NCBI RefSeq assembly: GCF_030013595.1
Contig: NZ_CP122769.1
Strand: one strand, 5' to 3'
DNA from: Escherichia coli
GTDB lineage: Bacteria > Pseudomonadota > Gammaproteobacteria > Enterobacterales > Enterobacteriaceae
DNA: 64,000 nucleotides
How positions within the stretch are numbered: the first letter of the stretch is position 1; every line of letters begins with the position of its first letter. This document shows, piece by piece, positions 22,960-64,000 of the stretch. The notes beneath the pieces were generated by a model. It saw nothing but the letters and a program-made list of their open reading frames with translations, was not told the origin of the DNA and did no database searches. Made by a program: the position numbers and the translations under genes.

Positions 22960-22965
22960 AGTTAT

Positions 22966-22981
22966 GCGCCCGTGAGGGCGC
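22966..22981. terminator. palindrome GCGCCCGTGAGGGCGC between convergent genes
   Basis: Perfect 6-bp stem with GTGA loop flanked by A-run upstream and T-rich sequence downstream; positioned between plus-strand stop (22959) and minus-strand stop (22981). Confidence 0.4.
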
Positions 22982-30357: not shown

Positions 30358-30442
30358 AATTTTCCTCGTACGGCTGGTACGGCCAGCAGAAAACGTTGCT
30401 GTACAGAAAGGTGCTGCCCGGAAAGCAGCACCTTTCTGTCTG

Positions 30443-31722: not shown

Positions 31723-31744
31723 GACATCCCCTTAATTAATAAAA

Positions 31745-32383
31745 TTATAAGACCACGTTTACTTCTGGCGGCGGCGGTGGCAGGTCTTCAAGACCGATCA
31801 CTTCTTTTTTGCTGGACTCCACTTTCTGACTGCCTACCGAAATGCTCGCACTGACCCATTTAAAGAAAGCTTTAATCGTCGAACTGTCAGCTGTATCGAG
31901 CTGAACCACGATTTCAGTGATTTCTTTGAGGACGCTGGTATCGGCATCATGCCCGGCTGCACATGCCACAACAACGCCGGTTCTGGCCGCTTTAAAGTCA
32001 TTCAGGCCTTTACGCCAGTCATCATTCGGACTTCCATCCGTCATCAGGAATACAAGGGGACGCCAGTCACCTTTAGTGTCAGCCGTCGTTTTCTGTACTT
32101 CTTTGGCAATGGAGCTGGCCGTCAGGGTAAGCGCTGCGCCAAGAGAGGTGGTGCCGCTGGCTGTTAGTGCTGGCATCTGGAAACTCAGGAGGTCTGTCAG
32201 GGGGACTGCCTGTCGGGCTGAAGAATCAAAGGTGATCACTGACACGTAAGCCGTTTCGAGTGCATACGGATCCTGTTTCAGCGTGGTAAGCAGCGTCTGA
32301 ACGCCATTCTTAACCGCTTCGATAGGCTCTCCGTGCATAGAGCCGGACGTGTCGAGTAGCAGATATACGGGTAAGCGTCTCAA
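31745..32383 (-). CDS. terY: TerY vWA protein (first TerY paralogue), TTG start
   Basis: LRRLPVYLLLDTSGSM and FLMTDGSPND; no in-frame ATG at the conserved N-terminus, but TTG at 32383 is preceded by AAGGA at proper spacing. Listed ORF extends to 32464. Confidence 0.7.
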   Translation of the reverse strand: MRRLPVYLLLDTSGSMHGEPIEAVKNGVQTLLTTLKQDPYALETAYVSVITFDSSARQAVPLTDLLSFQMPALTASGTTSLGAALTLTASSIAKEVQKTTADTKGDWRPLVFLMTDGSPNDDWRKGLNDFKAARTGVVVACAAGHDADTSVLKEITEIVVQLDTADSSTIKAFFKWVSASISVGSQKVESSKKEVIGLEDLPPPPPEVNVVL

Positions 32384-48862: not shown

Positions 48863-48960
48863 AACAGCCTAAAAGTTGTACGCCCTATTTAACAGCTTTT
48901 AGGCTGTTAATTTGATATTACAGCTTTTAGGGTGTATGTTTAGGAAACAGCCTGCAAGGT
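48863..48960 (+). promoter_or_regulatory. hipBA promoter/operator region with repeated ACAGCYTW-type palindromes
   Basis: Palindromes AACAGCCTAAAAG..., AACAGCTTTTAGGCTGTT, ACAGCTTTTAGGGTGT, AACAGCCTGCAAGGTGT; embedded TTGATA - 17 bp - TATGTT (48912-48940) promoter-like hexamers. Confidence 0.45.
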
Positions 48961-48989
48961 GTATCAGAGGAAACTACTGAGGCCAGCTT

Positions 48990-49286
48990 ATGATCAATAA
49001 TGATTACCCGTTAAACACGCTCAACCAGCTGCGTCCCTTGCTCATTGGTTTTCGCAAGGCGAATGGCCTGACGCAAAAAGACCTGTCCGAAAGGTTAGGC
49101 GTCACTCAACAGACATACTCACGTCTGGAAGCCAACCCTGCCAGTGCGAGCATTGAACGGCTATTCAAGGTGTTTTCCATCCTGGGCGTAAAAATCAGCT
49201 TCTCCTCGGCAACCACCTCTTCAGAGAGGAAGCAGACGGAAGAAATGCTTAAATCAAACTCACCTGCACGACAGGAGGATTGGTAA
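48990..49286 (+). CDS. hipB: HipB antitoxin (Cro/C1-type HTH)
   Basis: HTH segment GLTQKDLSERLGVTQQTYSRLE; immediately upstream of hipA with 4-bp gap. Confidence 0.85.
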   Translation: MINNDYPLNTLNQLRPLLIGFRKANGLTQKDLSERLGVTQQTYSRLEANPASASIERLFKVFSILGVKISFSSATTSSERKQTEEMLKSNSPARQEDW

Positions 49287-49290
49287 CGAT

Positions 49291-50616
49291 ATGAGCCGGA
49301 AACAGCAACGTCTGGTAATTTGGATGAACGGCATCAAAGTCGGGTACTGGGAAAAAAGCAAAGGGGTAGACAGCTTAGAATACCTTCCTGAATGGGTTGC
49401 TGACGAACAGGGAAGGCCGCTGTCATTGTCCCTTCCTTTTACTCCCGGGAACCAGGTCTGGCGTGGAAATGTGGTACGTGACTATTTTGATAATTTACTG
49501 CCGGACAGCGAAGGCATACGCAGACGTCTGGCAATGCGTTACAAGGCCGATAGCCTGGAGCCTTTTGATCTGCTGACGGAGCTGGGAAAAGACTGCGTGG
49601 GCGCGATACAGCTGCTTCATGACGGAGATGAACCCACTGATTTATATTCCGTGAAGTATCACCCGCTTACTGAATCAGAAATTGCGGCAACTTTGCGTAA
49701 TACCACGGAGACATTGCTACCGGGCAGGCCAGAAGATAACGACGACTTACGTTTATCTATTGCCGGTGCTCAGGAGAAAACAGCCCTACTGTGGCATGAA
49801 GATCGGTGGTGTATGCCGGAGGGTAATACACCAACGACGCATATATTCAAGCTACCGCTCGGACTTGTGGGGAACATGAAAGCCGACATGAGCTCGTCGG
49901 TTGAAAATGAATGGCTCTGCTCGGTACTTCTCGGCCAGTACGGGCTCCCCGTGGCAAGAACGCAGATTGCTCACTTTGAAGATCAGAAAGCGCTGGTGGT
50001 AGAACGTTTTGACCGAAAATGGTCAGGAGACGGACAATGGATCATTCGTTTACCCCAGGAGGATATGTGTCAGGCCCTGGGCGTTTCGCCATTACGAAAA
50101 TATCAGGCGGACGGCGGGCCAGGTATATCGGAAATTATGGAGGTTCTGAGTAATTCAGACCGTGCTGAGCGTGACAAAGCGCAGTTTTTTATGACGCAGA
50201 TAATTTTCTGGATGATGGCCGCAACAGATGGCCACGCTAAAAATTTCAGTATTTCTATTGGGCCACAGGGACGTTATCACCTTACACCAAACTATGATGT
50301 GTTGTCGGCATGGCCGGTGATCGGTCATGGGAACAATCAGATATCCTGGCAGAAGTGCAAACTGGCGATGGCCGTACGTGGCAGTAGCAACTATTACCAG
50401 ATATATCGAATACAACGACGCCACTGGATCAGGCATGGTGAGATAACCGGCCTGAGTAAACAGCAGACAGAGGCGATGATAGAGGAAATCATCGCCAGAA
50501 CCCCGGGTGTCATTGAACGTGTTAGCGGGCTTCTTCCGGACCAGTTCCCCCAGCAGCTTGCGGAAAGTATTTTTGATGGAATGAGGCAGCAATGCAGGCG
50601 CCTGGCTGAGAAATGA
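49291..50616 (+). CDS. hipA: HipA serine/threonine kinase toxin
   Basis: Colinear with E. coli HipA including SIAGAQEKTALL, VERFDR, RLPQEDMCQ and ATDGHAKNFS motifs. Confidence 0.9.
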   Translation: MSRKQQRLVIWMNGIKVGYWEKSKGVDSLEYLPEWVADEQGRPLSLSLPFTPGNQVWRGNVVRDYFDNLLPDSEGIRRRLAMRYKADSLEPFDLLTELGKDCVGAIQLLHDGDEPTDLYSVKYHPLTESEIAATLRNTTETLLPGRPEDNDDLRLSIAGAQEKTALLWHEDRWCMPEGNTPTTHIFKLPLGLVGNMKADMSSSVENEWLCSVLLGQYGLPVARTQIAHFEDQKALVVERFDRKWSGDGQWIIRLPQEDMCQALGVSPLRKYQADGGPGISEIMEVLSNSDRAERDKAQFFMTQIIFWMMAATDGHAKNFSISIGPQGRYHLTPNYDVLSAWPVIGHGNNQISWQKCKLAMAVRGSSNYYQIYRIQRRHWIRHGEITGLSKQQTEAMIEEIIARTPGVIERVSGLLPDQFPQQLAESIFDGMRQQCRRLAEK

Positions 50617-50676
50617 CAGCCGCAATTTATAGTGTGCATGTTTTCAGAATAGCTGATGTAAGCGTGAGGATTCAGT

Positions 50677-50883
50677 ATGACTGAAGAACAAAAAAGAATA
50701 GAGCGGGCTATTGAGTTGGCTTGTCGTTACGGCGGAACCGATGAAATGCATCATCTGCAATGGGTCGTGGATCAGATGGTAAGAGAACTTGCTGGAGAAC
50801 GTTATGCACAGATTGTAGCTGATGCCACCAGCGGAGAAGATGGGCCTGATACTTACAAATGGAGTGTTGGGATCGCGCCTTAA
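50677..50883 (+). CDS. hypothetical small protein
   Basis: 68-aa ORF with RBS GAGGA upstream; no recognisable motifs. Confidence 0.35.
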   Translation: MTEEQKRIERAIELACRYGGTDEMHHLQWVVDQMVRELAGERYAQIVADATSGEDGPDTYKWSVGIAP

Positions 50884-50984
50884 CAGCTGTCGGTCTGGGG
50901 GTGAAAACGTATTCTTCATTCAGCGAATTCCCAGGCTTCACATTAAGACTAAAGCGGCGGCCGCAGTAACGTAAGAGAAAATAA

Positions 50985-51395
50985 ATGGCTATTTTAGCAA
51001 TCATTGCAGTTATCGCCCTGGGTGGGTACGCCTACGGATTTATTAAAACCCGTGAGCTGAGCGCTTTGCGTAAAGAAATGAAACTATACGTGGATCGCAT
51101 GGAAGCGGCGGAGCTGGACTTACACGCAATCAGAAGTGTAGCGGAGCACCGGTTGCACGGTGCAGGTAAACAGTTTGCCGACCTTTACAGCCGTATCGAC
51201 GGTGCAACTGTGACGCTGACACCCGAAGATCAGCTGTTACTGGCAACGATGCCATTTAATATTCAGGATGTAGAAGACATCGTAAACGAGCGCGGTCCAA
51301 AGACAATTAGCGGCCGTCCATTCTGGGAAGTTGAGCCAGGCCTGCATGATTATGAATATGGCCCGCAATATCCGTATTTCCCAGACCAGCGCTAG
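50985..51395 (+). CDS. hypothetical protein with N-terminal transmembrane helix
   Basis: 136-aa ORF; N-terminus MAILAIIAVIALGGYAYGFI; 12 bp upstream of HNH gene. Confidence 0.4.
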   Translation: MAILAIIAVIALGGYAYGFIKTRELSALRKEMKLYVDRMEAAELDLHAIRSVAEHRLHGAGKQFADLYSRIDGATVTLTPEDQLLLATMPFNIQDVEDIVNERGPKTISGRPFWEVEPGLHDYEYGPQYPYFPDQR

Positions 51396-51407
51396 GAAGA
51401 GATCAAG

Positions 51408-52223
51408 ATGAGAGAGCCAAGACCACGCCATACCTTGCAGGTCATTCGTGTACCTTCTCTGGAGGTTCAGGACCTGGGGCTGACCAGCTTTGATAGCTGG
51501 CTTGACGAGCACGGGTATGACAAAACGAATGCCAGAAATAACCGTACCATCTGGGCGAGAGAAGGCGGATGGCATCTGAAACGTTGCAGAAATCTTGAAA
51601 CTGGCACGGACGATTTCTGGTTTATCGCTTTCGATGGTAAAGGCGGGAAGATTTACCCGCTGAAAACCCAAAGAGACTACCGGGCTGCATATCGTAAGCT
51701 GGAAGCAGAAGGTTATGCGCCTGCGGTCATCGAGCAAATGACCACAGGCGCAGCATATAACCTGGCCTATCCACGTTCCACCCTAAAACAAGCTGAGACG
51801 GCCACCAGCGAGCCAATTCGGAAACCTGACGTAGATATCCAGGGTGAGCACTGCGAGCGCGTAGTGACGCAACGTAGTGGCGTGGCACAGGGTAAATTCA
51901 AAGCTCTGCTCATCGAGAATTTCGCAGGCCGTTGTGCGGTAACCGGTTGGGTTAATGGAGGTGTCCTGGATGCGGCACACATTGAACATGGAACCCGGTA
52001 CAATCCGTCTAATGGCATCCTGATGACTCCAACAATGCATGCGCTGTTTGATGCCGATCTTATGGGCATAGATCCGGCCACCCTGACCGTTCATTTTAAG
52101 CCAGGCATTGAGGTGGGCGAGCTGTTTGAAGGCCGTAAAATCACACCGCTGGTGTACGATCTGGACTTAGAGCGGCTGGCCGTACGCTGGGCAGAATACC
52201 AGGGCCTTGCTCAGGACCAATGA
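51408..52223 (+). CDS. HNH-family endonuclease
   Basis: C-terminal HNH signature CAVTGW...DAAHIEHGTRYNPSNGILMTPTMHALFD. Confidence 0.65.
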   Translation: MREPRPRHTLQVIRVPSLEVQDLGLTSFDSWLDEHGYDKTNARNNRTIWAREGGWHLKRCRNLETGTDDFWFIAFDGKGGKIYPLKTQRDYRAAYRKLEAEGYAPAVIEQMTTGAAYNLAYPRSTLKQAETATSEPIRKPDVDIQGEHCERVVTQRSGVAQGKFKALLIENFAGRCAVTGWVNGGVLDAAHIEHGTRYNPSNGILMTPTMHALFDADLMGIDPATLTVHFKPGIEVGELFEGRKITPLVYDLDLERLAVRWAEYQGLAQDQ

Positions 52224-52476
52224 AGGGTGACAGCCAGGTTGTGCCTAAACCTGGCAGTAAAACCTGCATGCCACAAACCTTTAAATTCTGACTCAAGAGC
52301 CTGGCACAAGATAAAAGCGAAATGAAAAGGTTAAAACCGGTGCACCAGACCTCTTAGGTTTAATACCTGAGCCAGTATACTGGCAGTCTCAGGTAAGTGG
52401 GTATCATACACTTCAGAAATATCCACACCGAGATAACCGCAACAGTTAAAGAGCTAAAAAGGACGGTTTTAATTTT

Positions 52477-52598
52477 ATGAATAAAACAGCTTTAATTATG
52501 ATTCTGGGAATCCTCGGATGTGGTAAAGCATTTGCAGCCACTGAATTACAGCTCCAGCAAAAACGCGTTATGCATTTCTGTGCCAATGCCAGCCTTCC
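52477..52598 (+). pseudogene. 5' end of a small lipoprotein gene truncated by IS1
   Basis: ATG with RBS AAAAAGGA; signal peptide with lipobox ILGC; coding frame runs into the IS1 left end. Confidence 0.3.
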
Positions 52599-52654
52599 GG
52601 GTGATGATGCCAACTTACTGATTTAGTGTATGATGGTGTTTTTGAGGTGCTCCA

Positions 52655-52930
52655 GTGGCTTCTGTTTCTATCAGCTGTCCCTCCTGTTCAGCTACTGACG
52701 GGGTGGTGCGTAACGGCAAAAGCACCGCCGGACATCAGCGCTATCTCTGCTCTCACTGCCGTAAAACATGGCAACTGCAGTTCACTTACACCGCTTCTCA
52801 ACCCGGTACGCACCAGAAAATCATTGATATGGCCATGAATGGCGTTGGATGCCGGGCAACCGCCCGCATTATGGGCGTTGGCCTCAACACGATTTTCCGC
52901 CATTTAAAAAACTCAGGCCGCAGTCGGTAA
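52655..52930 (+). CDS. insA: IS1 InsA
   Basis: 91-aa product with zinc-finger [10 protein letters not shown]...CSHCRK and HTH, matching IS1 InsA. Confidence 0.9.
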
Positions 52931-53352
52931 CCTCGCGCATACAGCCGGGCAGTGACGTCATCGTCTGCGCGGAAATGGACGAACAGTGGGGATACGTCGG
53001 GGCTAAATCGCGCCAGCGCTGGCTGTTTTACGCGTATGACAGGCTCCGGAAGACGGTTGTTGCGCACGTATTCGGTGAACGCACTATGGCGACGCTGGGG
53101 CGTCTTATGAGCCTGCTGTCACCCTTTGACGTGGTGATATGGATGACGGATGGCTGGCCGCTGTATGAATCCCGCCTGAAGGGAAAGCTGCACGTAATCA
53201 GCAAGCGATATACGCAGCGAATTGAGCGGCATAACCTGAATCTGAGGCAGCACCTGGCACGGCTGGGACGGAAGTCGCTGTCGTTCTCAAAATCGGTGGA
53301 GCTGCATGACAAAGTCATCGGGCATTATCTGAACATAAAACACTATCAATAA
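52849..53352 (+). CDS. insB: IS1 InsB (expressed as InsAB' by -1 frameshift)
   Basis: 167-aa frame overlapping insA 3' end; sequence matches IS1 InsB. Confidence 0.85.
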
Positions 53353-53510
53353 GTTGGAGTCATTACCGGCAGCATCAACTACATCGCAAGCAGTAAGAGT
53401 AAGTGACGATGCCACAGCAAGACACAATAAAGAAAATCTGTTTTTGAACATATTTGAGACCTTTTATAAAAATAAAATAACAGGAGAATTGTATCATTAA
53501 CAGTCTAGTT

Positions 53511-54176
53511 CTAACGACTACCACTTTTAAGTATGTATTGAGCCAGTTTTATATTCAGGCACACCATATTGCACTCTAGCTCTTTCATCATTCTTGAAGA
53601 ACTCTTAATTAAGTATTCTTCAAGTGGGCCAGCATATGCCCCTGATGTCACGATCGTTAGTTGCGTAAGAGGATGAGTCAAACTCTCAATGCCCTTCAGG
53701 ATGTCATTCTGGACAGCAGCAATATAAACAGGCGAAGCCGCAATCAAATATTCATCATTCGGGCTGGACTGCATTAACTGGCTTATAGTTGCGCAACGGT
53801 TATGCTTACCTAGTGATTTTGTGATGGCTTTCCACCAGAGATCATGCCTGAATGGTACTTGATGAAATGTCGCCTCGTAAGAGGGCACCCGATCTCGACT
53901 ATTTAAAAACCCCATCCCGGCAGAGATTATCCACAACTCCAGATTTCTGGTTGAGTTTAAAATTTCCTTTGCCGTAGACCAGTGATTACCTGAATACAAG
54001 GACAATGCCGGTACCGCCTGATTACTTCTGGCGTCGTCTACAATGTTACTCCAGGCATATGCTGCGTCGTCCGGGGTTTGTTTTGGATCTATGTCCAATG
54101 TCGGCCAGACGTGGCCCTGATGATTCTTGCCCTTTGTACAGGAAGTGATTAAGTGTACTGAGCGTTCAGAGAACAT
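53511..54176 (-). CDS. hypothetical protein
   Basis: 221-aa ORF downstream of and co-directional with 54234-54614; no recognisable motifs. Confidence 0.45.
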   Translation of the reverse strand: MFSERSVHLITSCTKGKNHQGHVWPTLDIDPKQTPDDAAYAWSNIVDDARSNQAVPALSLYSGNHWSTAKEILNSTRNLELWIISAGMGFLNSRDRVPSYEATFHQVPFRHDLWWKAITKSLGKHNRCATISQLMQSSPNDEYLIAASPVYIAAVQNDILKGIESLTHPLTQLTIVTSGAYAGPLEEYLIKSSSRMMKELECNMVCLNIKLAQYILKSGSR

Positions 54177-54233
54177 TATCTTCCTTACATACCCATAGAA
54201 CAGCTTTCTAAGAACGGTGGGCTCGCCTGAAAA

Positions 54234-54614
54234 TTACAAATCAGCCCCTTTCACGGCATCATTTTGATTCTTCGCGTCTGCCCCCAGTAAGATGACCGGT
54301 TTTCTGCATGACAGTGTTATTCCTAACAAACGCAACACAAAACCACGCCAGCCAGAGCAAATTTTTTCATTTGCTGCGTAAAGCCTATTGTTTTCTCTTT
54401 TAAGCTTCGCCCACTCGTTACAGAGGGTAACATCATCAAGCGCTGTTATATGCTTCGCCTCACCTTCGACGATAACGGTATGGATACCGTATGCTGTAAA
54501 TCTCATACTATTTTCCAGAACCCAGTTGCGGTATTCGTCGAGTCCACCTTCGGAACCGGTAGCTCTGCGCCACATTTCAATTTGCTTGTGTGATGGGTCA
54601 AGTGTACTTGTCAT
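54234..54614 (-). CDS. hypothetical protein
   Basis: 126-aa ORF; no recognisable motifs. Confidence 0.45.
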   Translation of the reverse strand: MTSTLDPSHKQIEMWRRATGSEGGLDEYRNWVLENSMRFTAYGIHTVIVEGEAKHITALDDVTLCNEWAKLKRENNRLYAANEKICSGWRGFVLRLLGITLSCRKPVILLGADAKNQNDAVKGADL

Positions 54615-55207
54615 TGAAGCCTCGTCTCAGCGATAACGCTTGAAATAGCCCGCTTTGGTCATCATGAAATTAGCCATCTGACTGGCGATTTGATTGTATC
54701 TTACTCATAGTGCCCTACCTATAGGTTAAAAAGGGGCATTTTCGCTTTATAGCGTGTTCAGCAGCATCAATCCTCCCAAGAAAGGCTGGCTTATTAAGCC
54801 GGTCCATCATTTTCTGTATATCTCTCATCAATTTTTATATCCGCCCTGGAGTGCACCGTTCAAGCACACCGATTAGGCAGATAGTCACTAGTTAACTCTT
54901 TACTAGTGACTAAATTCCATTGATATACGTGACAACGTCACGTCATGAAAGCTTTTAAATGCCTATTTTTCATACAATGGGATTTAATTAGGAGTAAATC
55001 CCATAGGCTTACATAAGGATGACAATTAAAAGCGTTAAATATCAACCAGATAGAATGATTACCCCCAATTAATGGGCTCATCACATTATTTCACTGGCTG
55101 GGGTTATTGCTGGCATATCTGAAAGTGCTAATATGTTAGTCATTAGTAATTAGTAAAGCCTTTACTAAACGCGTTTCTACGTAAATTCTATAGGTTTTAT
55201 AGGGTCC

Positions 55208-55290
55208 TGTCCGAGGACAATAAAGTTGTACACAAAGCACTAAAGTTGTAACCATTCTCAAAAAACGACGCTAATGTTGTATACTTACTG
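55208..55290 (+). repeat. Tn7-like end with three TnsB-binding-type repeats (AAAGTTGTA core)
   Basis: GACAATAAAGTTGTACAC, CACTAAAGTTGTAACC, CGCTAATGTTGTATAC in direct orientation within 80 bp of the TGT terminus. Confidence 0.6.
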
Positions 55291-55365
55291 AATGTGTGGT
55301 TATAGGGTTGGAGACTATAAAATGCACATATAGGTACGTATCAATGTCGTTTTTAGGGTACGATC

Positions 55366-56208
55366 ATGGCTAGGGGTAGGCGTCTCAAATCCTATTTGGA
55401 TTATGAAAATGCGCTAGGTGACGGCATAGGAGTGGGCTATGGCCAAAGTTATCAGCCCTGGCTTAGAGCTCAGGACGTTAAATCCCGTGGAAACCGTTCG
55501 ATAGTCTTTGGCCTTAAGACGTTTCGAAACCATCATCTCCTTTCTTCTGTCGAAAGTAACTTTTTCTATCTGGCTGAGTTTAATGACTCGGTGATTGATA
55601 TCCGGGAACAATTCCCACTCTTTCCTCTCCGGCTTACCCAACAAATAGCAAATCATCTACATTTTCAACATCCTATGGTGAGGGGAGTAAGAGGAGTACC
55701 TGTCGAAGTTCTGAATGTTATGACAACCGATTTTTTACTGACCTTGAGAACTCCTGAAGGCGGACTTCGATACAAAGCTATAGCAGTAAAACATAACGAG
55801 AGCATACCTGAACGCGAAGCCCAAAAACTTGAAATAGAGAGGATGTTTTGGCAGTTGATTGATGTTGAGTTTCAAATTTATGTTGGCTCGGAACTCAATA
55901 ACGTCGTCGGTAAAAACATTTGCTGGGCTACTTCTGTATTAAGAGATGGTTCTGAATTTTATGATAAATATCCTCTTGATAAAATCCTATGGAAGCTTAA
56001 ACCAGATGTTTATCCCATAGTAGGACTACGTGCAATGATTTCATCAATCTTTGGGGTAGATGCACAAGAAGCGATGATGTTATTGCAGGCAATGATTGGA
56101 TTAAAAATGATAAATGTTGATTTATCATATCCAATACTCGAAACCGGTCTGATAAAGATAATTTCCAATGACCACTATATAGGACTGAACGCAAATGGAT
56201 ATTATTAG
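55366..56208 (+). CDS. tnsA: TnsA-like endonuclease
   Basis: Colinear with Tn7 TnsA (YQPWLRAQDV..., HLLSS, IDIREQFPLFPL, LEIERMFWQ). Confidence 0.85.
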   Translation: MARGRRLKSYLDYENALGDGIGVGYGQSYQPWLRAQDVKSRGNRSIVFGLKTFRNHHLLSSVESNFFYLAEFNDSVIDIREQFPLFPLRLTQQIANHLHFQHPMVRGVRGVPVEVLNVMTTDFLLTLRTPEGGLRYKAIAVKHNESIPEREAQKLEIERMFWQLIDVEFQIYVGSELNNVVGKNICWATSVLRDGSEFYDKYPLDKILWKLKPDVYPIVGLRAMISSIFGVDAQEAMMLLQAMIGLKMINVDLSYPILETGLIKIISNDHYIGLNANGYY

Positions 56209-58318
56209 GAATTCAGTCTGGCTCTCTCAAGGCACTGATTTGCTTGCAGAGGGACTTTACCGTGTTTTGGATTTTGACAGAAAGGTCGATTTGTTAATTT
56301 TGTTTAAAATAAAATCAGAAAGAACGGGTAAGCCAATCCCTTTCTCATTTTCAATGTTTAAATATTATATTGAATCAAATAGCATAACTTGTAAAGATTA
56401 TATATATCCTTCATATATGTTAGTAGATGAGAAAGAATTAACAGATAAAGACAGAGGAAGGCGAGATGAAAATTACAATATCATTAAAGATCTTGTAGAT
56501 GACAGAATGTTTCTGTTCGACTATGCATTACATAAAAAGTCGCACCTTTTAATGGATTACTCAAGAAATAAAAAAATATCACAATATACTATCAGAACGC
56601 TTCTGGCGTTGTATTGGCGACATGGGCAGGATATTTATGCATTGCTACCCGCATTCTCGAACTGTGGCGCCGCTGGGAAAAGTAGAATCAAACATGAAAT
56701 TAAACTTGGGAATTCCAAAAAAAACAGAGCATTACCTAATGAACGATCACGTGTTTTCATTCTTAATGAAAGAGATATAAATAATATTAGAAAATCTCTC
56801 ATTACGTATCATTATAAAGTTAACGGAGATACGATAAAGAAAACATTAGAGAGACATATTGATTTGTATTTTAGGGATGAAATTAAAACAGCAAACCTAG
56901 AAAATAGAGCTCCATATGTTCCTTCTTTAAAACAATTTTCATACTGGAATAAAAAACTCTTCACTAAAGATTTCTCGATAAATAAGAAGAACACGAAAAA
57001 AGAAATAGACCTCAAAATGCGGGCGCTTTTAGGTAGTGTGGCTAATACAACTGTTTTGCCGGGTGATGTTTTCGAAATAGACTCAACTGTCGCTGATGTA
57101 CATCTTATTTCGAGTTTAAACAGACGAAAAGTCATTGGGCGTCCTACTATTTATACAGTGGTGGATCGTGCAACAAGAATGATTGTTGGCCTTCATGTTT
57201 CTTTATACCATGCTTCATGGCGAGCCGCCCGACAAGCGTTAGCAAATTGCTTTATGCCAAAAAAAGAATATTGTAGATTATTTGGAATCTCTATTACTGA
57301 TGATGATTGGCCTTGTTCTCACATTCCATTAACATTGATGTGTGACAACGGGGAGATGATTGGTCTTAAACCTCAGGAAGAGATGACCCCCCTGACAAAA
57401 CTTGAGTTTGCGCCAGTCGGTAGAGGCGACAGAAAAAGCATTGTTGAACGCTGTTTCGGCATTCTGAATGATGAGGTTATTCATAGGCTTATTGGAACAA
57501 CACGAAGGGGAAAGATTGTTAAAGGAGAGCCAACACCGCAATCCAGGGCTTGTTTAACGATTCAGGAGGTCACGTCTTTACTGATTCGGGAGATACTTGC
57601 ACATAATCAGAGAACGTATGAGGAACTGGCTTATATCAATCCCTTACTGATTGAAAATGATCTCGTAATATCACCAAAAAATAGTTGGATGATAAGCTTA
57701 AAGCACGGGAGATTCAGCGCAAGAGCCGTTGGGGCCGACGAAGTGATCGCACGATTGTTAATCCCTGTGAACGCTAACATTACCGCCGGTGGGATTCAGT
57801 ACAATAATCTTTTTTATGAATGTGATCCTGAAATTGCATCAGGTGTCAGAGTATTTGGAAGAACCACTTGTGAAGCAAGAATAGATGACAATTGCGTAGA
57901 TTATATATATGTAAGATTTGACAAAAATAGCATTTTCAAAAAACATTACCTACTTAAGAAAAGAGATGTATTTAAAGGGAAAGCTCATCTTGATACAGAT
58001 GTAATGGCTGATTGGGTAGATACTCAAAAAGAAATTAATTTATTTACTCTGGATTCGCTCAGCAATATCAATAATAAAGATGAATTTAACAGGAAAGGTA
58101 ACGAAAGATTAAATGAAATATACGAATCTCGCCGGGTACATGGTAAAGATATTAAAAAGAACAGAAAAAATGAACTTGATTCATTAGGGCGAACTCATGT
58201 TGCTAATGGAAGATCTGAACCCCTACTTCCTTCATCCAGTAATGTTCTGCTTTTGCCTGGCCGGGAGGAGAAACAAAGATGGTTAAAAGGTAAGAAGAAG
58301 ACTGAGGACGCAGAATAA
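56195..58318 (+). CDS. tnsB: TnsB-like DDE transposase
   Basis: 707-aa product in TnsB position, overlapping tnsA stop; Mu/Tn7-type transposase organisation. Confidence 0.8.
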   Translation: MDIIRNSVWLSQGTDLLAEGLYRVLDFDRKVDLLILFKIKSERTGKPIPFSFSMFKYYIESNSITCKDYIYPSYMLVDEKELTDKDRGRRDENYNIIKDLVDDRMFLFDYALHKKSHLLMDYSRNKKISQYTIRTLLALYWRHGQDIYALLPAFSNCGAAGKSRIKHEIKLGNSKKNRALPNERSRVFILNERDINNIRKSLITYHYKVNGDTIKKTLERHIDLYFRDEIKTANLENRAPYVPSLKQFSYWNKKLFTKDFSINKKNTKKEIDLKMRALLGSVANTTVLPGDVFEIDSTVADVHLISSLNRRKVIGRPTIYTVVDRATRMIVGLHVSLYHASWRAARQALANCFMPKKEYCRLFGISITDDDWPCSHIPLTLMCDNGEMIGLKPQEEMTPLTKLEFAPVGRGDRKSIVERCFGILNDEVIHRLIGTTRRGKIVKGEPTPQSRACLTIQEVTSLLIREILAHNQRTYEELAYINPLLIENDLVISPKNSWMISLKHGRFSARAVGADEVIARLLIPVNANITAGGIQYNNLFYECDPEIASGVRVFGRTTCEARIDDNCVDYIYVRFDKNSIFKKHYLLKKRDVFKGKAHLDTDVMADWVDTQKEINLFTLDSLSNINNKDEFNRKGNERLNEIYESRRVHGKDIKKNRKNELDSLGRTHVANGRSEPLLPSSSNVLLLPGREEKQRWLKGKKKTEDAE

Positions 58319-59766
58319 TGAATCTTATACGGCGCGTTTCAGCGATATATAAAGAACAGGAGTTACCTGAGTATCGTGGCAATCCCTTAATTGAAGCACT
58401 TCCTGAAGCGCTTACGGAAGATGAAGTACTTCTGGAAATGAGTTATTTCCCCGAAATTGACGAAAAAATCCGCTGGACTGCCCCGGCGAATGTTAGAGAG
58501 CAGTATGTCGAACGTATAAAGAAATTCCGTTGCCCTCAAACCAATCTTATCCAGGCTTATAAGATGATCTTACGGGCACTTAGGGAAAGCTATGCAGCTC
58601 GTAATCCTTTAAAAAGCGGAACAATTCAATATCTTCATTACTATGGAAATGAGCGTCCTGATATTGAGCCAGAAAGTGGATATTTTAAATCCCAGGCTGA
58701 AACTATTACGATAGTTGGAATGAGTGGTTCTGGAAAAACTACCATGATTGAGCAAGTCATGGAACATTTCCCTCAGATTATAGAACACAGCAGCTATAAA
58801 GGAGTTTTTCCCGGCTTCAGTAAGCAAATTGTATGGGTAAAGATTAATTGTCCATACAATTCAAGTGTGAGAGACCTTTGTGAAGAGATTTTACAAAAAT
58901 TAGATGATGCAATTGGTATTGAACGAACTACACCTGAGATTAGAAATGGTGCTCTGGCTCGCCAGATTGCACAAAGAATTAAATCATCATTTTTGGGTAT
59001 CCTTGTTATTGATGAAATGCAGAGGCTTAAATTTTCAAGAACCGGGGGTGAGAGTAAGTTGATTGATTTTTTACATGAAATTGTAGATTCCATGGGGGTA
59101 TCTATGGTTTTTTGTGGAAATCATCCTTTTGACGAGACGCTGACAAAGAAAATGAGAATTGCCAGGCGGGCAGAGTCTGGTGGTTACATGAAAATTAAGA
59201 ATGTTAGATACGATTCACAAGACTGGCAATCGTTTATTCATTATTTATGGCCATTACAATGGACAAATGTTGAAACTCCATTAAATGATGAGTTAAACGA
59301 AAAATTATTCATTTTATCTAAAGGCAATATTGGATTGGCTCAGATGATTTATCGGGGGGCACAATTAAAGGTTATCGGTAGCGGCAATGAAATCATCACT
59401 GGCGCAGTCTTGTCGGCCTCTGTACCGGTACTCGTGAGTCATACGGAGGAATATAAGGATACTCCACTCCCGGGGGCCGCGACTGAAGATGAGGAAGCTA
59501 AATGGCTCTCTGCATCTAATGAGGGTGATGCTTCGGCTAAAATCATGGCAGAGAAGTCCCTAAAGTCTTTGATCCCTGGGGATATAGACAGGCCACAGCA
59601 CAAGGAATTCGTAGGAAAAATAGACGAGGTTTTGCGCAATTTCGACGAGAAAATACTGTCTCTTGACCACGATCTTGTTATCAACAGAACAGCTGAAAAG
59701 AAAAATACCTACGATGCTCTTCAGCGTTGCGGGCTTATAAATATAGATCCACTTAATAAATTGTAA
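58318..59766 (+). CDS. tnsC: TnsC-like AAA+ ATPase
   Basis: Walker A GMSGSGKTT, Walker B LVIDEMQRL; start overlaps tnsB stop. Confidence 0.85.
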   Translation: MNLIRRVSAIYKEQELPEYRGNPLIEALPEALTEDEVLLEMSYFPEIDEKIRWTAPANVREQYVERIKKFRCPQTNLIQAYKMILRALRESYAARNPLKSGTIQYLHYYGNERPDIEPESGYFKSQAETITIVGMSGSGKTTMIEQVMEHFPQIIEHSSYKGVFPGFSKQIVWVKINCPYNSSVRDLCEEILQKLDDAIGIERTTPEIRNGALARQIAQRIKSSFLGILVIDEMQRLKFSRTGGESKLIDFLHEIVDSMGVSMVFCGNHPFDETLTKKMRIARRAESGGYMKIKNVRYDSQDWQSFIHYLWPLQWTNVETPLNDELNEKLFILSKGNIGLAQMIYRGAQLKVIGSGNEIITGAVLSASVPVLVSHTEEYKDTPLPGAATEDEEAKWLSASNEGDASAKIMAEKSLKSLIPGDIDRPQHKEFVGKIDEVLRNFDEKILSLDHDLVINRTAEKKNTYDALQRCGLINIDPLNKL

Positions 59767-59797
59767 TGAGGTAACAGTTCGTAACGGTCAAAGAGAG

Positions 59798-61363
59798 GTG
59801 TGGGAAATGAGAATGTTGCCTGTTTTGCCTGATGAATCCTTGTTCAGCCGGTTTTGTCGGACAACTACCGTGTACGGTATGTCCCCATCTTCTCTGTTAA
59901 CGATCATTTTCAACAAACCTGATATGAACGTCCATCCAATTCTCAATTCAGGATTAAAGGCTATTTCTCTTCATACATCCGAAAGTGCAGATCAGCTCTG
60001 GCATGAACAGACTTTACTCCCTCTTTTTGCCTGGGCACTACCAATCAGTCGTAATGAAATTATGGATTTCAACACGACCCCTGCCAGGCTTAATCGATTG
60101 TGCCGCCTTAGTAATTTTTCACTAGGGCAGCGCACACTATTGAAGTTTTGCCCGGTTTGCGCTCGTGAAGATACTTTTCATTATGGTGTTACTTATTGGC
60201 ATCTGGCGCATCAGCTTCATGGGGTTACAACCTGCCATCGGCATCCGGTAGCGCTTGAAAGCATCCATGTCCCTTCTTCACCGCACATACGTATTGGACT
60301 GATGCCTCCTGTTTCGTATACAGAACAACTTAGCAATGAGATAGACTTCGATTTTGCTAAGTTTTGTTATGAGTCCCTAAATATAATCAGAAGAAAAGAT
60401 ATTACACACCCCAATTACATGGATGTACTTAAAAAGTTGAATTTATTATCATTGGATGGAAATTTAAAGAAAAATGTATTCTACGCACATGTTTATGCTA
60501 AGTGCCAGTTATTTGGGGAGGGTTCATCGGGACTTATACCAACATCCCTAACTGATTATCATTACTGGGAGCCTATACTCAAAGACAAATGTTGTCAGCA
60601 TCCCACAAAGCATCTTTTGCTTTGTTATTGTTTGTTAAATACTTGCTGGCCAACGTATGCAGGAAGTCGTACTAATAAAAAGAAAGAAATCTTTAAAAGT
60701 CATAAGAAATACAGTTTTCATATAGTTGAAAATAATACTAGTGTTAGCAACCTTGGGAAGGAATTTAGTCGCAGCAGATGTTACATTAAAACACTTATTT
60801 ATAAAAAATACCTGAGGGCGTTTAAGCGAAACACAAAAATTAATATATTCACTGAATTGCTTATCAAGTCTATGGCTGTAAGGGGGTTTAGTCTGGCATC
60901 CATAGCTGAGAAAAACTCATTATCGGAAGGAGCTGTATCCTCTGTAATTTCATCTTGTTACGGTTTATGCTCATGGCGTAAAAAATGTAAAAAAGATTCT
61001 TTAAGACGGCGTCATAAGCAGAAAATATTAAGATTTATACATAATCAATCCGTTTCTATAACACGAAAGTTAGTCAAAGAAAGTTGTTATGCAAGTTTCT
61101 ATTGGCTAAATAAACATGAATGTGACTGGCTTAATTCCTGTCTTCCTAAAACAATACGATGCTATAAAAATAAAAGAGTAGACTGGAGCGAGAGAGATAT
61201 TATCTCATCATCATTAATAAATGATGTTTTATCTCAGGGGCAGTACTCGATGTCACTTACAAGTCTAGATGCTTTACTGGGAGGGCATGGCTGGCTTTTG
61301 AAATACAGAGATAAACTACCAATGACAATGATACTTCTCAGAAAAATGGAACTAATTAAATAA
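59798..61363 (+). CDS. tnsD: TnsD/TniQ-family target-selection protein
   Basis: N-terminal zinc-finger pattern CPVCAREDTFHYGVTYWHLAHQLHGVTTCHRHP characteristic of TniQ/TnsD. Confidence 0.7.
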   Translation: MWEMRMLPVLPDESLFSRFCRTTTVYGMSPSSLLTIIFNKPDMNVHPILNSGLKAISLHTSESADQLWHEQTLLPLFAWALPISRNEIMDFNTTPARLNRLCRLSNFSLGQRTLLKFCPVCAREDTFHYGVTYWHLAHQLHGVTTCHRHPVALESIHVPSSPHIRIGLMPPVSYTEQLSNEIDFDFAKFCYESLNIIRRKDITHPNYMDVLKKLNLLSLDGNLKKNVFYAHVYAKCQLFGEGSSGLIPTSLTDYHYWEPILKDKCCQHPTKHLLLCYCLLNTCWPTYAGSRTNKKKEIFKSHKKYSFHIVENNTSVSNLGKEFSRSRCYIKTLIYKKYLRAFKRNTKINIFTELLIKSMAVRGFSLASIAEKNSLSEGAVSSVISSCYGLCSWRKKCKKDSLRRRHKQKILRFIHNQSVSITRKLVKESCYASFYWLNKHECDWLNSCLPKTIRCYKNKRVDWSERDIISSSLINDVLSQGQYSMSLTSLDALLGGHGWLLKYRDKLPMTMILLRKMELIK

Positions 61364-61374
61364 GAGGGAGTTAT

Positions 61375-62301
61375 ATGGTTTACGAAAATGAATTGTGGCA
61401 CAGTTTTCTTCTGCGTTCACAGATAATGTATAACTTATCCAATTGCAGGAACATAATATCAAAGCATGGCGCACTAAGGTACGATGCCTTTCCTCGTTTC
61501 GAACTGATTGATATGTACAAATTGCATAGCTTGCAGGATATATATGACATTCTTGCCACTAGAAATGGTTATATACTAACTTCCAATATAGTGTCGTTAT
61601 CTTCTGGTGTTTACGGGTATTTTAACGCTGTTGAAGATGCCTGTCGGAAAAATTTTCACATAACTAATTCATATCCATTGGTAAACATCTCAAACATTCG
61701 TTACTGTCACAAATGTATTGTTGAAGATATACACTCTAAAGGCATTGGTTATCTGCGTCATAGATGGTTGTTTGAATCTAAATGTGCAGTTCATAGTACC
61801 AGTTTATATGAGGTTTGTTTTGATAACTATTTGAATGCAGTGAAAGGACTTAGTGACTTAATTATAAGTGGAATAAATCCTCATGGTTATTGTTCCCTTG
61901 TGGTTGACGTTTCAAACCCTTTCAAAAATCCAGTGTATATATTACCATGTGCACGTAATAAAATTTTAAAATGGATTTCGGACAATAAAAATATGCTGAT
62001 TTACTTTCTCTTTGATCTCTTCAAATGTAAGTCGCATTCAAGTTTATCTAAGGTTATCGAAGTCAAGATAATGCATGATAGATATATTTCTGCGGTGTTC
62101 AAGATGTTAAGTGAAGTTAATTTTTGTAATTTCAACTCATTTATTTCTGATATTTTTGAGGACGTAAGTTATGCCTCTATCGGACTTGATGATTATTCTG
62201 TTAATGTGCATTTTCTCAGGCTAAGGGCTGCAGATTGTAAATTTTGCCAGTTGAATGGTAAATATTTTTGCTCACTTTACAATGTAAAATTTCTTCGCTA
62301 A
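61375..62301 (+). CDS. second TniQ-like protein (308 aa) in the position normally held by TnsE
   Basis: Repeats the TniQ-type pattern CHKCIVEDIHSKGIGYLRHRWLFESKCAVHS; too short and dissimilar to be Tn7 TnsE. Confidence 0.45.
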   Translation: MVYENELWHSFLLRSQIMYNLSNCRNIISKHGALRYDAFPRFELIDMYKLHSLQDIYDILATRNGYILTSNIVSLSSGVYGYFNAVEDACRKNFHITNSYPLVNISNIRYCHKCIVEDIHSKGIGYLRHRWLFESKCAVHSTSLYEVCFDNYLNAVKGLSDLIISGINPHGYCSLVVDVSNPFKNPVYILPCARNKILKWISDNKNMLIYFLFDLFKCKSHSSLSKVIEVKIMHDRYISAVFKMLSEVNFCNFNSFISDIFEDVSYASIGLDDYSVNVHFLRLRAADCKFCQLNGKYFCSLYNVKFLR

Positions 62302-62653
62302 TTTCACTTCATTTATAAAATACTAAGAAAGCTAGTTAGATAAGGTTTTATATTTTGACTGGGGCAGGAATAAATTATCACTCATAGAGTTTCCCTGGGG
62401 GTTACCACCTGTGTATGATGCCGGTTAGCAACAACGTCTAAAAGACCTGCGATCACGTGGGTCCCTCTCCAGCAAAGGGGCAAGGGGTGCTATATAACGG
62501 TGTACTGCTTACCCAATACGGCCTTGTATTTGAAAGATGCCGCATCTTGGCAGGATTCGTATTACAGCCTATAGTCTGTTAATGAGCATTACAGCCTATA
62601 TGCTGTAAATCCCTGCGTTATGCTTGTTAACTCGTCGATACGGAAGGTCACTT

Positions 62654-62953
62654 ATGAACACTCAATACGCTTTGAAGACTTTGAATCAGTTACGTCCTGT
62701 TTTAATCGGCTTTCGCAAAGCCAATGGACTGACGCAAAAAGATGTTTCTGAACGTTTGGGTATAACACAGCAAACTTATGCCCGACTAGAGGCCAACCCT
62801 GCAAGTGCGGGTTTTGAGCGTTTGTTTAGGGTGTTCAGCGTCCTTGGAGTGGAGATCGTACTTTCATCCAGGGAACCATTGTCAGATGCAAAGCCCGAAT
62901 ACGGAGCTATGCACAATTATTCTTCACTTCCAGCCAGGCGGGAGAAATGGTGA
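62654..62953 (+). CDS. hipB: orphan HipB-like HTH protein inside the Tn7-like element
   Basis: About 80-85% identical by eye to the HipB at 48990-49286 (LNQLRPVLIGFRKANGLTQKDVSERLGITQQTYARLEANPAS); upstream palindromes ACAGCCTATAGTCTGT / ACAGCCTATATGCTGT; no hipA follows. Confidence 0.7.
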   Translation: MNTQYALKTLNQLRPVLIGFRKANGLTQKDVSERLGITQQTYARLEANPASAGFERLFRVFSVLGVEIVLSSREPLSDAKPEYGAMHNYSSLPARREKW

Positions 62954-63516
62954 CGCCTGGCGCTTCCCGGTCTAATTTTTCTTCAACAAGATTAACCCCT
63001 TAGCGGCCTGAAGTATCAGGTTGCGATAGAGCCTTTCATTTCTTCTGTTATGTTAAATACACCATTTTGAGCTATTTCGCTCGGCCTTAAATTATCTCTT
63101 CATTCTTCAGTGAAAATTTTATGTCGATCACATTATCGATGAATTTAGGAAATAATCCGTAAATGAAAATCTATCTTCTTTTAAATTCATCAGTGTCAGT
63201 AGCAAATATTACGCATAAAAGAATGGTTATTATTATCATTTAAATTATAAAGCTCATGAGTCAATTCCAAAAAATATAATAAGCATTGAAATCATTACCC
63301 GTGATTCTGGAGTTTTAACTTTGCCATGTAACCAACCACAAGTTAGTTTCCGGTGTTTTGAGGGGCAGTAAAGTTCTGAAAGCGCGACCAGATCATAATC
63401 CCGAAATGTCGTTAAGATATTCTGAATAACGGTTATCCCTGCTTGTTGGCAGGCATTTGAAAATATATTTTGTATTCAGGTTGCAGCAAAACGCTTTCTT
63501 ACACACAGGACTTCAT

Positions 63517-64000
63517 ATGCGGCTCAGAAAATTAAAACTGAAAAACTTCAGAGGCTACAGAAACTCTACTGAAATCATTATTGATGAAAGCATGACGGGT
63601 ATTGTCGGTCGTAATGACTTTGGGAAATCAACGCTTCTGGAAGCGCTGGCTATTTTTTTTGAAACAGAAGGAATGAAGGCTGACAAGAATGACATGAACT
63701 GTTTCAGCCTAAGAGAAGGGGACGGCCGTTTTGAAATAGCCTGTGAATTTGATGACCTGCCCGATTTTATCATGATCGACGACAGGGTGCAGACCACGCT
63801 CGCCTCAGAACATCTGCTGAATGAGGACGGCAATTTTGAAATCGTCAAAACGTTTAAAGCAACGACCTCAGGAAAACCGGAGCAGACCTGCATCCGCTGC
63901 ATCCACCCGGATGAGGAGCCCCTGAGAAATTTACTGGGCATGAAAATTTCTGAGCTCAAGGCGGTGGGAAAAGAAGTTGAAAAAAATGTGGCGGATAAAC
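63517..64000 (+). CDS. OLD/ABC-type (AAA_15/21-like) ATPase, N-terminal 161 codons; 3' end outside window
   Basis: ATG with RBS CAGGA; N-terminus MRLRKLKLKNFRGYRN...GIVGRNDFGKSTLLEAL (Walker A) typical of OLD-family/defence-associated ATPases; no stop before window end. Confidence 0.65.
   Translation, partial: MRLRKLKLKNFRGYRNSTEIIIDESMTGIVGRNDFGKSTLLEALAIFFETEGMKADKNDMNCFSLREGDGRFEIACEFDDLPDFIMIDDRVQTTLASEHLLNEDGNFEIVKTFKATTSGKPEQTCIRCIHPDEEPLRNLLGMKISELKAVGKEVEKNVADK

Follow-up and report, generated by a model that had tools for sequence, protein, structure and literature searches.

A probable hipBA toxin-antitoxin operon of the IncHI2 plasmid backbone with a four-operator promoter, and its toxin-less HipB paralog in a Tn7-like metal-resistance transposon

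The chromosomal hipBA locus of Escherichia coli K-12 (PDB 2WIU, 3DNV, 3TPD) carries four exact TATCC-N8-GGATA operators of 18 bp, spaced 28, 39, and 28 bp, and its hipB and hipA genes overlap by 1 nt; both the operator consensus and the HipB tail acting as a Lon degron have been described (PMC3376134). Other hipBA loci are found throughout Enterobacterales, on the chromosomes of Pantoea, Serratia, Brenneria, Rahnella, Citrobacter youngae, Morganella, and others and on the Cronobacter plasmid pCsaC767b. HipBST and the YjjJ/HipH kinases belong to the same HipA_C kinase fold family, and solo or orphan HipBs have been reported on mobile elements, in anti-defence islands of plasmid leading regions (PMC11541004). 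On IncHI2 plasmids, hipAB has been named as a stability or post-segregational-killing module (PMC4855149, PMC6306219, PMC6617520), a label that PMC6306219 and PMC4855149 assert from annotation only, and the genes are transcribed with host-dependent expression (PMC13183382). In the literature searched, we found no direct experiment on the IncHI2 module, plasmid retention included. The locus is therefore already known and annotated, with the hipA product listed in RefSeq as a HipA-family toxin, and its classification is ordinary. Only one feature was unexpected: 13.6 kb from the locus, a Tn7-like metal-resistance transposon carries another HipB copy, which has no toxin partner but the same type of putative binding site.

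The DNA analysed here (the window, 64,000 nucleotides) is IncHI2 plasmid backbone, in keeping with the plasmid location that the initial annotation had considered. On its plus strand, hipB (48990-49286) encodes a predicted 98-aa Cro/C1-type HTH antitoxin/repressor, and hipA (49291-50616) a predicted 441-aa HipA-family Ser/Thr kinase toxin. Neither ORF is truncated, and the two share one orientation, with hipB directly upstream and a gap of 4 bp (49287-49290), just as first annotated. The hipB ATG follows a GAGG at 48979-48982, 7 nt upstream, and RefSeq places the start one codon downstream (48993-49286); the hipA Shine-Dalgarno sequence AGGAGG (49273-49278) lies within the 3' end of hipB. The protein identities proposed from the sequence also hold. 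HipB is an HTH_3 protein by domain search (4.5e-15) whose top PDB sequence matches are HipB chains, and HipA contains Couple_hipA (PF13657, 3.7e-21) and HipA_C (PF07804, 3.6e-51), both beating their gathering scores, and matches solved E. coli HipA structures end to end (E = 1e-100, residues 7-431). A mutated HipA active site had been named as the finding that would speak against the locus, and none of the residues in question is mutated. By global alignment, the K-12 catalytic set is identical, with S150 (the autophosphorylated P-loop serine in K-12 numbering) corresponding to S156, K181 to K187, D309 to D313, H311 to H315, N314 to N318, and D332 to D336. The hipA7/P86L positions are kept as well (G22 as G25, D291 as D295, and P86 as P91), so that all catalytic and regulatory residues examined are conserved. 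The Ser/Thr-rich HipB tail terminates in ...SNSPARQEDW, and its terminal tryptophan is shared by K-12 HipB, as aligned here, and without exception by the relatives; by analogy with K-12 (PMC3376134), the tail is probably disordered and Lon sensitive.

Compared with K-12, the IncHI2 locus shares the gene order from hipB to hipA, the HipA domain architecture, the catalytic and regulatory residues checked, a HipB made of an HTH core and a probably disordered tail with a final tryptophan, and four palindromic operators over one promoter with neighbouring sites 28 bp apart. In contrast, identity is just 41% for HipA and 32% for HipB, the plasmid-borne genes are separated rather than overlapping, and the HipB tail extends a further 10 aa. 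The expected alignment to E. coli hipBA thus stood for the proteins but not for the operators: the IncHI2 sites read ACAGC-N6-GCTGT (16 bp), spaced 28, 28, and 27 bp, and no TATCC-N8-GGATA site occurs at the hipBA locus of the window. HipB scores 41.5 bits against the NCBIfam HipB equivalog model NF007271, under its 79-bit cut-off. Neither the operator sequence nor this score identifies the pair as an orthologue (equivalog) of K-12 HipB/HipA, so the repression complex may be different in detail. Assignment to the other kinase families is likewise not supported. Unlike HipBST, which combines a split kinase with a third gene, the locus encodes a single full-length 441-aa HipA including the N-domain, with no hipS-like gene or third co-oriented homolog beside it; the 68-aa ORF downstream matches no family and has no counterpart in relatives. 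Against the YjjJ model, HipA reaches 25 bits, with a cut-off of 401 bits. The sequence features of a canonical two-gene HipBA are all found here, namely the toxin domains, the kinase set, the upstream HTH antitoxin, the tail tryptophan, and the operators.

Upstream of hipB, the four related palindromes around TTGATA-17-TATGTT that had been noticed at the outset are present with the same promoter and spacing. The -35 hexamer TTGATA lies at 48912-48917 and the -10 hexamer TATGTT at 48935-48940, both on the plus strand. Putative operators O1 (48864-48879, ACAGCCTAAAAGTTGT), the distal and least symmetric of the four, and O2 (48892-48907, ACAGCTTTTAGGCTGT), which has perfect 7-nt arms TAACAGC/GCTGTTA spanning 48890-48909, lie upstream of the -35 hexamer, O2 directly so. 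O3 (48920-48935, ACAGCTTTTAGGGTGT) fills the 17-nt spacer, its last position being the first T of the -10 hexamer, and O4 (48947-48962, ACAGCCTGCAAGGTGT) sits at or just past the predicted transcription start, which would fall near 48946-48948. All follow ACAGC-N6-G(C/G)TGT, with start-to-start spacings of 28, 28, and 27 bp, so that multiple palindromes overlap the promoter at the sequence level. A simple scan also flags O2 as terminator-like, a hairpin followed by a T-run. Allowing at most one mismatch, the motif has 18 strand-matches in the window compared with 4.98 +/- 3.0 in shuffles (0 of 100 shuffles reach 18), and 12 of the 18 fall in two clusters. Since the motif was derived from these very sites, the independent evidence from other genera and from a near-identical 232-kb plasmid weighs more. 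That plasmid has no more than two exact sites and two phased clusters, each upstream of a hipB-type gene. These patterns indicate that the four palindromes are very probably genuine repressor-binding operators of the hipBA promoter, and hipB and hipA are predicted to be transcribed from this single sigma-70 promoter.

An equivalent four-operator promoter, matching in the position of each element, precedes the hipBA loci of about 20 species of Enterobacterales. The shared architecture consists of hipB, a 4-bp gap, and hipA, preceded by three to four operators near -128, -100, -73, and -46 and a TTGnnn-17-TAnnnT promoter; the loci agree with the IncHI2 module in operator consensus, number, and positions, but are mostly chromosomal and lack its flanking genes. 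Relatives' HipA proteins are 67-81% identical (genome-contig loci), yet the surrounding non-coding DNA is unalignable; their HipB proteins are 56-75% identical and end in ...SPARREKW. Within the family alignment, O3 is the most strongly conserved site, its asymmetric GGGTG half being fixed across genera, and the half-sites of O2 are at least 90% conserved among 25 loci, in which TAnnnT is also conserved at the -10 column, with TTGnnn at the -35 column in relatives. O1 is found near -128 in most family members, is missing from some relatives, and is a perfect palindrome in one IncHI2 variant (L008). This recurrence reads as a clear phylogenetic footprint and, judged from these alignments, the IncHI2 module belongs to an Enterobacterales hipBA lineage that is distinct from that of the K-12 chromosome and has an operator sequence of its own. 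Four relatives (L011, L012, L014, and L023) have retained hipB and lost hipA, which shows that some chromosomes can do without the toxin or select against it.

We found the hipBA locus at 95-100% identity in 1,186 plasmids (PLSDB records), and in E. coli 286 of its 290 places are plasmids. The carriers are low-copy conjugative plasmids of type IncHI2A, as typed in those records that were fetched. The immediate neighbours are ter genes and small hypotheticals, with no defence genes among them. The flanking small ORFs (68 aa at 50677, 136 aa at 50985, and 143 aa at 47958) were considered as module parts and ruled out: none has a family match or a homolog beside 38 related hipB loci. Their absence from chromosomal relatives indicates that two genes and a promoter make up a self-contained module. 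We regard this locus as probably the two-gene hipBA operon of the IncHI2 backbone, a type II toxin-antitoxin system of canonical form. From K-12 and from the sequence features above we infer HipA toxicity, its kinase target, HipB neutralisation, operator binding, and plasmid stabilisation. HipB dimers would occupy the operators and, with HipA as co-repressor, shut off the promoter, while the disordered tail would make HipB Lon labile. Once the supply of HipB stops, as it would after loss of the plasmid, free HipA would phosphorylate an aminoacyl-tRNA synthetase, most likely GltX, and this would trigger the stringent response and growth arrest. As a result, plasmid-free segregants may be penalised or cells may become more tolerant. 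Location on an IncHI2 plasmid backbone makes an addiction role reasonable.

The second phased cluster belongs to hipB2 (62654-62953, plus strand), which the Tn7-like sil/pco transposon carries as cargo and which encodes a toxin-less 99-aa HipB paralog, 65% identical to HipB and ending in ...PARREKW. Its plus-strand upstream region (62547-62606) has a promoter-like TTGGCA-17-TATAGT (62547-62575) and two putative operators of the hipBA type, 27 bp apart, at 62564-62579 (ACAGCCTATAGTCTGT) and 62591-62606 (ACAGCCTATATGCTGT). The recognition helix is TQQTYARLE in HipB2 versus TQQTYSRLE in HipB, and genuine hipBA loci that have these operators also use the alanine variant. The hipB2 gene resembles the published solo hipB genes (PMC11541004) in lacking hipA and residing on a mobile element, but differs in that its operator type and its recognition helix recur in a complete hipBA of the same replicon, and in being cargo of a Tn7-like transposon rather than part of a leading region. 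A recent truncation of hipBA was ruled out as its origin, because no hipA remnant lies downstream (tblastn, E up to 100, 62901-63600) and the window has one HipA only. No operators are found between hipB2 and the neighbouring OLD-nuclease gene at up to two mismatches, giving no sign that HipB2 directly regulates that gene. The neighbouring ATPase matches PADLOC AriA, but AAA_15 explains this PARIS label; Pfam adds an OLD-like TOPRIM domain, and we therefore class the protein as an OLD-family nuclease. The surroundings of solo hipB relatives contain defence-type genes, including TIR, AbiE-like, PtuAB-like, and OLD-family nuclease genes. They do not appear to form one clade, since a neighbour-joining tree (75 residues, low resolution) suggests at least three origins.

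Several alternatives to a plasmid addiction operon can be weighed against these data. The locus could be a decaying or silent remnant whose palindromes are the terminator of the upstream gene, iterons, or sites of another regulator, and the terminator-like score of O2 and the loss of hipA from several chromosomal relatives would fit such a history. However, full-length ORFs with every key residue, conserved across the 1,186 plasmids, argue against decay. What the family alignment conserves is half-sites rather than stems, including the GGGTG half of O3, together with the 27- to 28-bp phase and the distance to hipB; moreover, every hipB-type gene examined has these sites in front of it, and the 232-kb plasmid has phased pairs nowhere else. 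We consider a remnant very improbable. An intact hipBA might instead serve mainly in antibiotic tolerance and persistence, or in anti-phage abortive infection, rather than addiction. K-12 hipBA is an established persistence locus (PMC3376134), and one IncHI2 plasmid increased ciprofloxacin tolerance, an effect that the study did not ascribe to hipBA (PMC6617520). A defence role, which the initial annotation had also raised, could draw on the defence-type surroundings of solo hipB relatives, but the neighbours of hipBA itself are of another kind. PADLOC gives HipA only a weak match to a candidate family (PDC-M03A, E = 4.1e-5, 21 bits, part of the kinase domain). Phage records contain practically no HipA homologs (2 of 50,697 match, one of them labelled a Salmonella genome contig), and we rejected a phage link on this count. 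The abortive-infection suggestion thus goes unsupported, and a main role in tolerance or defence is on the whole unlikely.

The remaining alternative concerns not hipBA alone but its relation to hipB2. HipB and HipB2 may form one cross-talking circuit, in which HipB2 binds the hipBA operators and/or HipA and buffers the toxin, and a chromosomal copy of the transposon cancels addiction. The similarity of the two proteins and the near identity of their recognition helices, with an alanine variant that genuine hipBA loci also use, are consistent with this, as are the two hipB2 operators, whose consensus and phase are identical to those of hipBA, and the PAR(R/Q)E.W tail kept in HipB2. Moreover, among 5,426 complete E. 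coli genomes, 674 have hipB2 at 99-100% identity, and 651 of its places are chromosomal; a published example describes transfer of Tn7/pco/sil to yhiN/yhiM with loss of the IncH portion of the plasmid (PMC8417528). Earlier work has already raised the possibility that orphan hipB genes act against toxin-antitoxin systems (PMC11541004). On the other hand, most hipBA plasmids lack hipB2 (1,186 versus 198 plasmid records), and solo HipBs may be mere autoregulated XRE-family regulators of neighbouring cargo. Cross-repression or anti-addiction by HipB2 is plausible from these sequence features, and a further HipB encoded by one and the same plasmid could weaken the hipBA module. The fuller proposal is tentative, with the odds against it: HipB2 would recognise ACAGC-N6-GCTGT operators as well as HipA, cross-repress hipBA, and serve as a spare antitoxin that, from chromosomal yhiN, where the transposon is put in about 12% of complete E. 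coli genomes, immunises the host against IncHI2 addiction. If true, recurrent and independently derived two-operator solo HipBs would be kept as anti-HipA devices on mobile elements and defence islands.

As vehicles for mcr-1, mcr-9, ESBL, and metal-resistance genes, IncHI2 plasmids are of major importance. How stably they are inherited, a property for which hipBA is routinely credited on annotation alone, matters in practice. To this picture we add a concrete promoter and operator map, a hipBA lineage that appears to use an operator code unlike that of the K-12 model, and a candidate interfering partner, HipB2, on the Tn7-like sil/pco element. HipB2 could alter the strength of addiction in many E. 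coli and Salmonella strains with this element.

The hipBA locus in the window consists of two co-oriented genes, hipB (48990-49286; 98 amino acids) and hipA (49291-50616; 441 amino acids), both intact and separated by 4 bases (49287-49290), as the initial annotation had described. GAGG lies 7 nt upstream of the hipB ATG, and AGGAGG (49273-49278), within the 3' end of hipB, precedes hipA. RefSeq/PGAP starts hipB one codon later, at an ATC codon (48993; 97 amino acids), a minor discrepancy; related proteins align best with a hipB starting at the ATG at 48990. HipB carries an HTH_3 (Cro/C1) domain and HipA the Couple_hipA and HipA_C domains, the latter protein matching E. coli HipA crystal-structure sequences across residues 7-431 (E = 1e-100). 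Mutated active-site residues in HipA had been named as what would speak against this reading, and global alignment found none: each K-12 HipA residue checked falls on an identical residue, including the autophosphorylation site S150 (S156 here, in the P-loop SxAGAQEKT), K181 (K187), D309 (D313), H311, K313, N314, and D332 (D336). The high-persistence positions G22, P86, and D291 of K-12 are also kept, as G25, P91, and D295. HipB ends in a 26-residue, Ser/Thr-rich tail (...PARQEDW) whose terminal Trp is invariant across K-12 HipB and all relatives; in K-12, the tail is a Lon degradation signal and W88 is held in a HipA surface pocket (PMC3376134).

Upstream of hipB we located four palindromes, each 16 bp long and all of the same type: O1 (48864-48879), O2 (48892-48907, with perfect 7-nt arms TAACAGC/GCTGTTA), O3 (48920-48935), and O4 (48947-48962). 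From start to start they are spaced 28, 28, and 27 bp. Among them lies a sigma-70-like promoter, TTGATA (48912-48917), 17 nt, and TATGTT (48935-48940). The earlier description of the locus was right in every particular. O2 adjoins the -35 element, O3 occupies the spacer, and O4 lies over the expected transcription start. This arrangement differs from that of K-12, which has four exact operator sites with centres 28, 39, and 28 bp apart. The window operator, ACAGC-N6-GCTGT, places its half-site centres 11 bp from each other, compared to 13 bp for TATCC-N8-GGATA in K-12, and the recognition helix reads TQQTYSRLE rather than KQATISNFE. Moreover, the K-12 genes overlap by 1 nt instead of being 4 bp apart, and the window HipB falls short of the NCBIfam equivalog threshold for HipB. 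The pair, 41% (HipA) and 32% (HipB, across the HTH core) identical to its K-12 counterparts, thus belongs to the HipBA family without being an orthologue of the K-12 pair.

With at most one mismatch, ACAGC-N6-GSTGT gives 18 strand-matches in the window versus 5.0 +/- 3.0 in shuffles, none of 100 shuffles reaching 18, a test that is partly circular because the motif was derived from O1-O4 themselves. Independent evidence is comparative, from a scripted analysis of related loci from plasmids and one genome per species. The same layout is found in about 20 species of Enterobacterales, including Pantoea, Serratia, Brenneria, Rahnella, Hafnia, Cedecea, Citrobacter youngae, Mangrovibacter, Morganella, and Klebsiella sp., with HipA 67-81% identical to that of the window, hipB followed after exactly 4 bp by hipA, and three or four operators matching this consensus at about -128, -100, -73, and -46 relative to the start of hipB. 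In an alignment of 25 upstream regions, the conserved columns are the ACAGC and GCTGT/GGTGT half-sites, the -35 element (TTGnnn), and the -10 element (TAnnnT), while the inter-site and distal DNA is unalignable. The hipBA of Cronobacter sakazakii plasmid pCsaC767b has the same four operators at -123, -95, -68, and -40. In relatives from Burkholderiales, whose HipA is 55-60% identical, the HipBs are longer and the sites read ACAG-N8-CTGT. A natural promoter variant occurs on an IncF plasmid (L006, NZ_CP060675.1; 1580-1740, corresponding to 48890-48920 of the window), where a 28-bp tandem duplication of O2 and the -35 element creates a fifth operator and two -35 boxes ahead of an otherwise identical hipBA.

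Sequence thus establishes the gene pair, the conservation of residues in its products, and a conserved arrangement of operators and promoter. The action of HipA on GltX in K-12 is well established and underlies the mechanism proposed here. By analogy with K-12, HipB dimers would bind each palindrome, with HipA on HipB as co-repressor (PMC3376134), and occupied sites in the spacer and over the start point would exclude RNA polymerase. HipB would be turned over by Lon, as in K-12; once HipB synthesis stops, HipA would be freed and would phosphorylate an aminoacyl-tRNA synthetase, probably GltX, leading to growth arrest. On a low-copy plasmid, such a system would be expected to penalise plasmid-free segregants.

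The same operator search found two further sites of the ACAGC-N6-GCTGT type, 62564-62579 and 62591-62606, 27 bp apart and directly upstream of hipB2 (62654-62953; 99 amino acids), whose product is 65% identical to HipB. A promoter-like TTGGCA-17-TATAGT begins at 62547, its -10 within the first operator, and neither hipA nor a hipA remnant is detectable after hipB2. HipB2 ends in ...PARREKW, with the same terminal Trp as HipB, and has the recognition helix TQQTYARLE; since this Ala variant is the one that accompanies the same operators in genuine hipBA loci, HipB and HipB2 are predicted to read the same DNA. hipB2 is the first cargo gene of a Tn7-like sil/pco transposon, following tnsA, tnsB, tnsC, tnsD, and a second, weak TniQ-like ORF (61375-62301) of the transposition region (55366-62301). 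The reassembled 232-kb plasmid encodes one HipA and two HipBs; its exact-consensus sites number only two, as do its phased clusters, of which each hipB gene has one. At 99-100% identity, hipB2 occurs in 674 of 5,426 complete E. coli genomes (651 places chromosomal) and in 198 plasmids, R478 among them; in the one chromosomal copy inspected, of O104:H4, it adjoins yhiN, beside which the same Tn7-like element, carrying sil/pco, is inserted.

From these sequence matches, it is plausible that HipB2 cross-represses hipBA. It is also possible that HipB2 neutralises HipA and hence acts as a putative anti-addiction factor when the transposon resides in the chromosome. A published stock variant, with Tn7/pco/sil relocated to yhiN/yhiM and the plasmid's IncH portion gone (PMC8417528), is compatible with anti-addiction but is no evidence for it, and the general idea of an orphan hipB acting against toxin-antitoxin systems was proposed earlier (PMC11541004). 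Most hipBA plasmids lack hipB2 (1,186 versus 198 records), so it is not required.

Further toxin-less HipBs with exactly two operators are found in Enterobacter, Klebsiella grimontii, Serratia, and a Citrobacter plasmid, next to TIR, AbiE-like, PtuAB-like, or IS genes. Intermediate loci occur among chromosomal relatives (Silvania confinis, two Enterobacteriaceae genomes, and Klebsiella indica): in three fetched loci (L012, L014, and L023; about 3300-3420), hipB is followed by just the last 20-30 codons of hipA, and in K. indica (L011, 3302-3406) hipA is broken after codon 35, with hipB and the operators kept in all of them. These loci represent repeated toxin loss with antitoxin retention, and a rough tree suggests that the solo state arose independently several times.

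Several other genes share this plasmid segment. Directly after hipA, two small ORFs (50677-50883, 68 amino acids; 50985-51395, 136 amino acids) are present in all IncHI2 copies fetched; neither matches a Pfam or NCBIfam family, and both are missing next to the chromosomal relatives of hipBA. An HNH_2 endonuclease gene (51408-52223; weak PADLOC HNH match) and an IS1B copy (52655-53352) lie between hipBA and the Tn7-like element. Starting 564 bp downstream of hipB2, with no HipB-type operator in between, is a gene cut by the window end (63518-64000; full gene at 21918-23744 of related locus L003) for a 608-amino-acid AAA_15 ATPase fused to an OLD-like TOPRIM domain. With PADLOC matches to AriA/GajA/Old, this protein is a stand-alone OLD-family nuclease, probably serving an anti-phage role. 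Upstream, a ter-associated cluster (26155-32383, minus strand) is annotated as VWA (TerY-like), TerY-C metal-binding, PP2C phosphatase, and InaA-family kinase genes, the last two being a second kinase/phosphatase pair on the segment.

The hipBA surroundings are IncHI2 backbone, with trhI, ter clusters, the HNH gene, and IS1, then the Tn7-like element with sil/pco; fetched plasmid records are typed IncHI2A, MOBH, and conjugative. Just two differences separate window positions 5314-49333 from Salmonella IncHI2 plasmid NZ_CP117034.1, and the match is perfect (100%) over 50600-64000. Many plasmids carry an exact copy (100% identity) of the 2-kb hipBA locus, and in nearly all of 1,186 PLSDB plasmids, from Escherichia, Salmonella, Enterobacter, Klebsiella, and other hosts, identity is 95% or higher; among the 5,426 complete E. 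coli genomes it occurs in 285, with 286 of 290 places plasmid-borne. A suggested role in abortive-infection-like responses found no support. RefSeq names the products "helix-turn-helix transcriptional regulator" and "type II toxin-antitoxin system HipA family toxin", and papers list hipA/hipB as a stability or post-segregational-killing module of the IncHI2 backbone (PMC4855149, PMC6306219, PMC6617520) with host-dependent expression (PMC13183382). Our literature search found no direct functional test of IncHI2 hipBA; at the level of annotation, therefore, the module was known before. Thus, we conclude that this is the known IncHI2 hipBA module, real, correctly interpreted, and ordinary, to which our analysis adds, modestly, a promoter map and operator code for this hipBA lineage and the observation that the replicon also carries a matching solo HipB.
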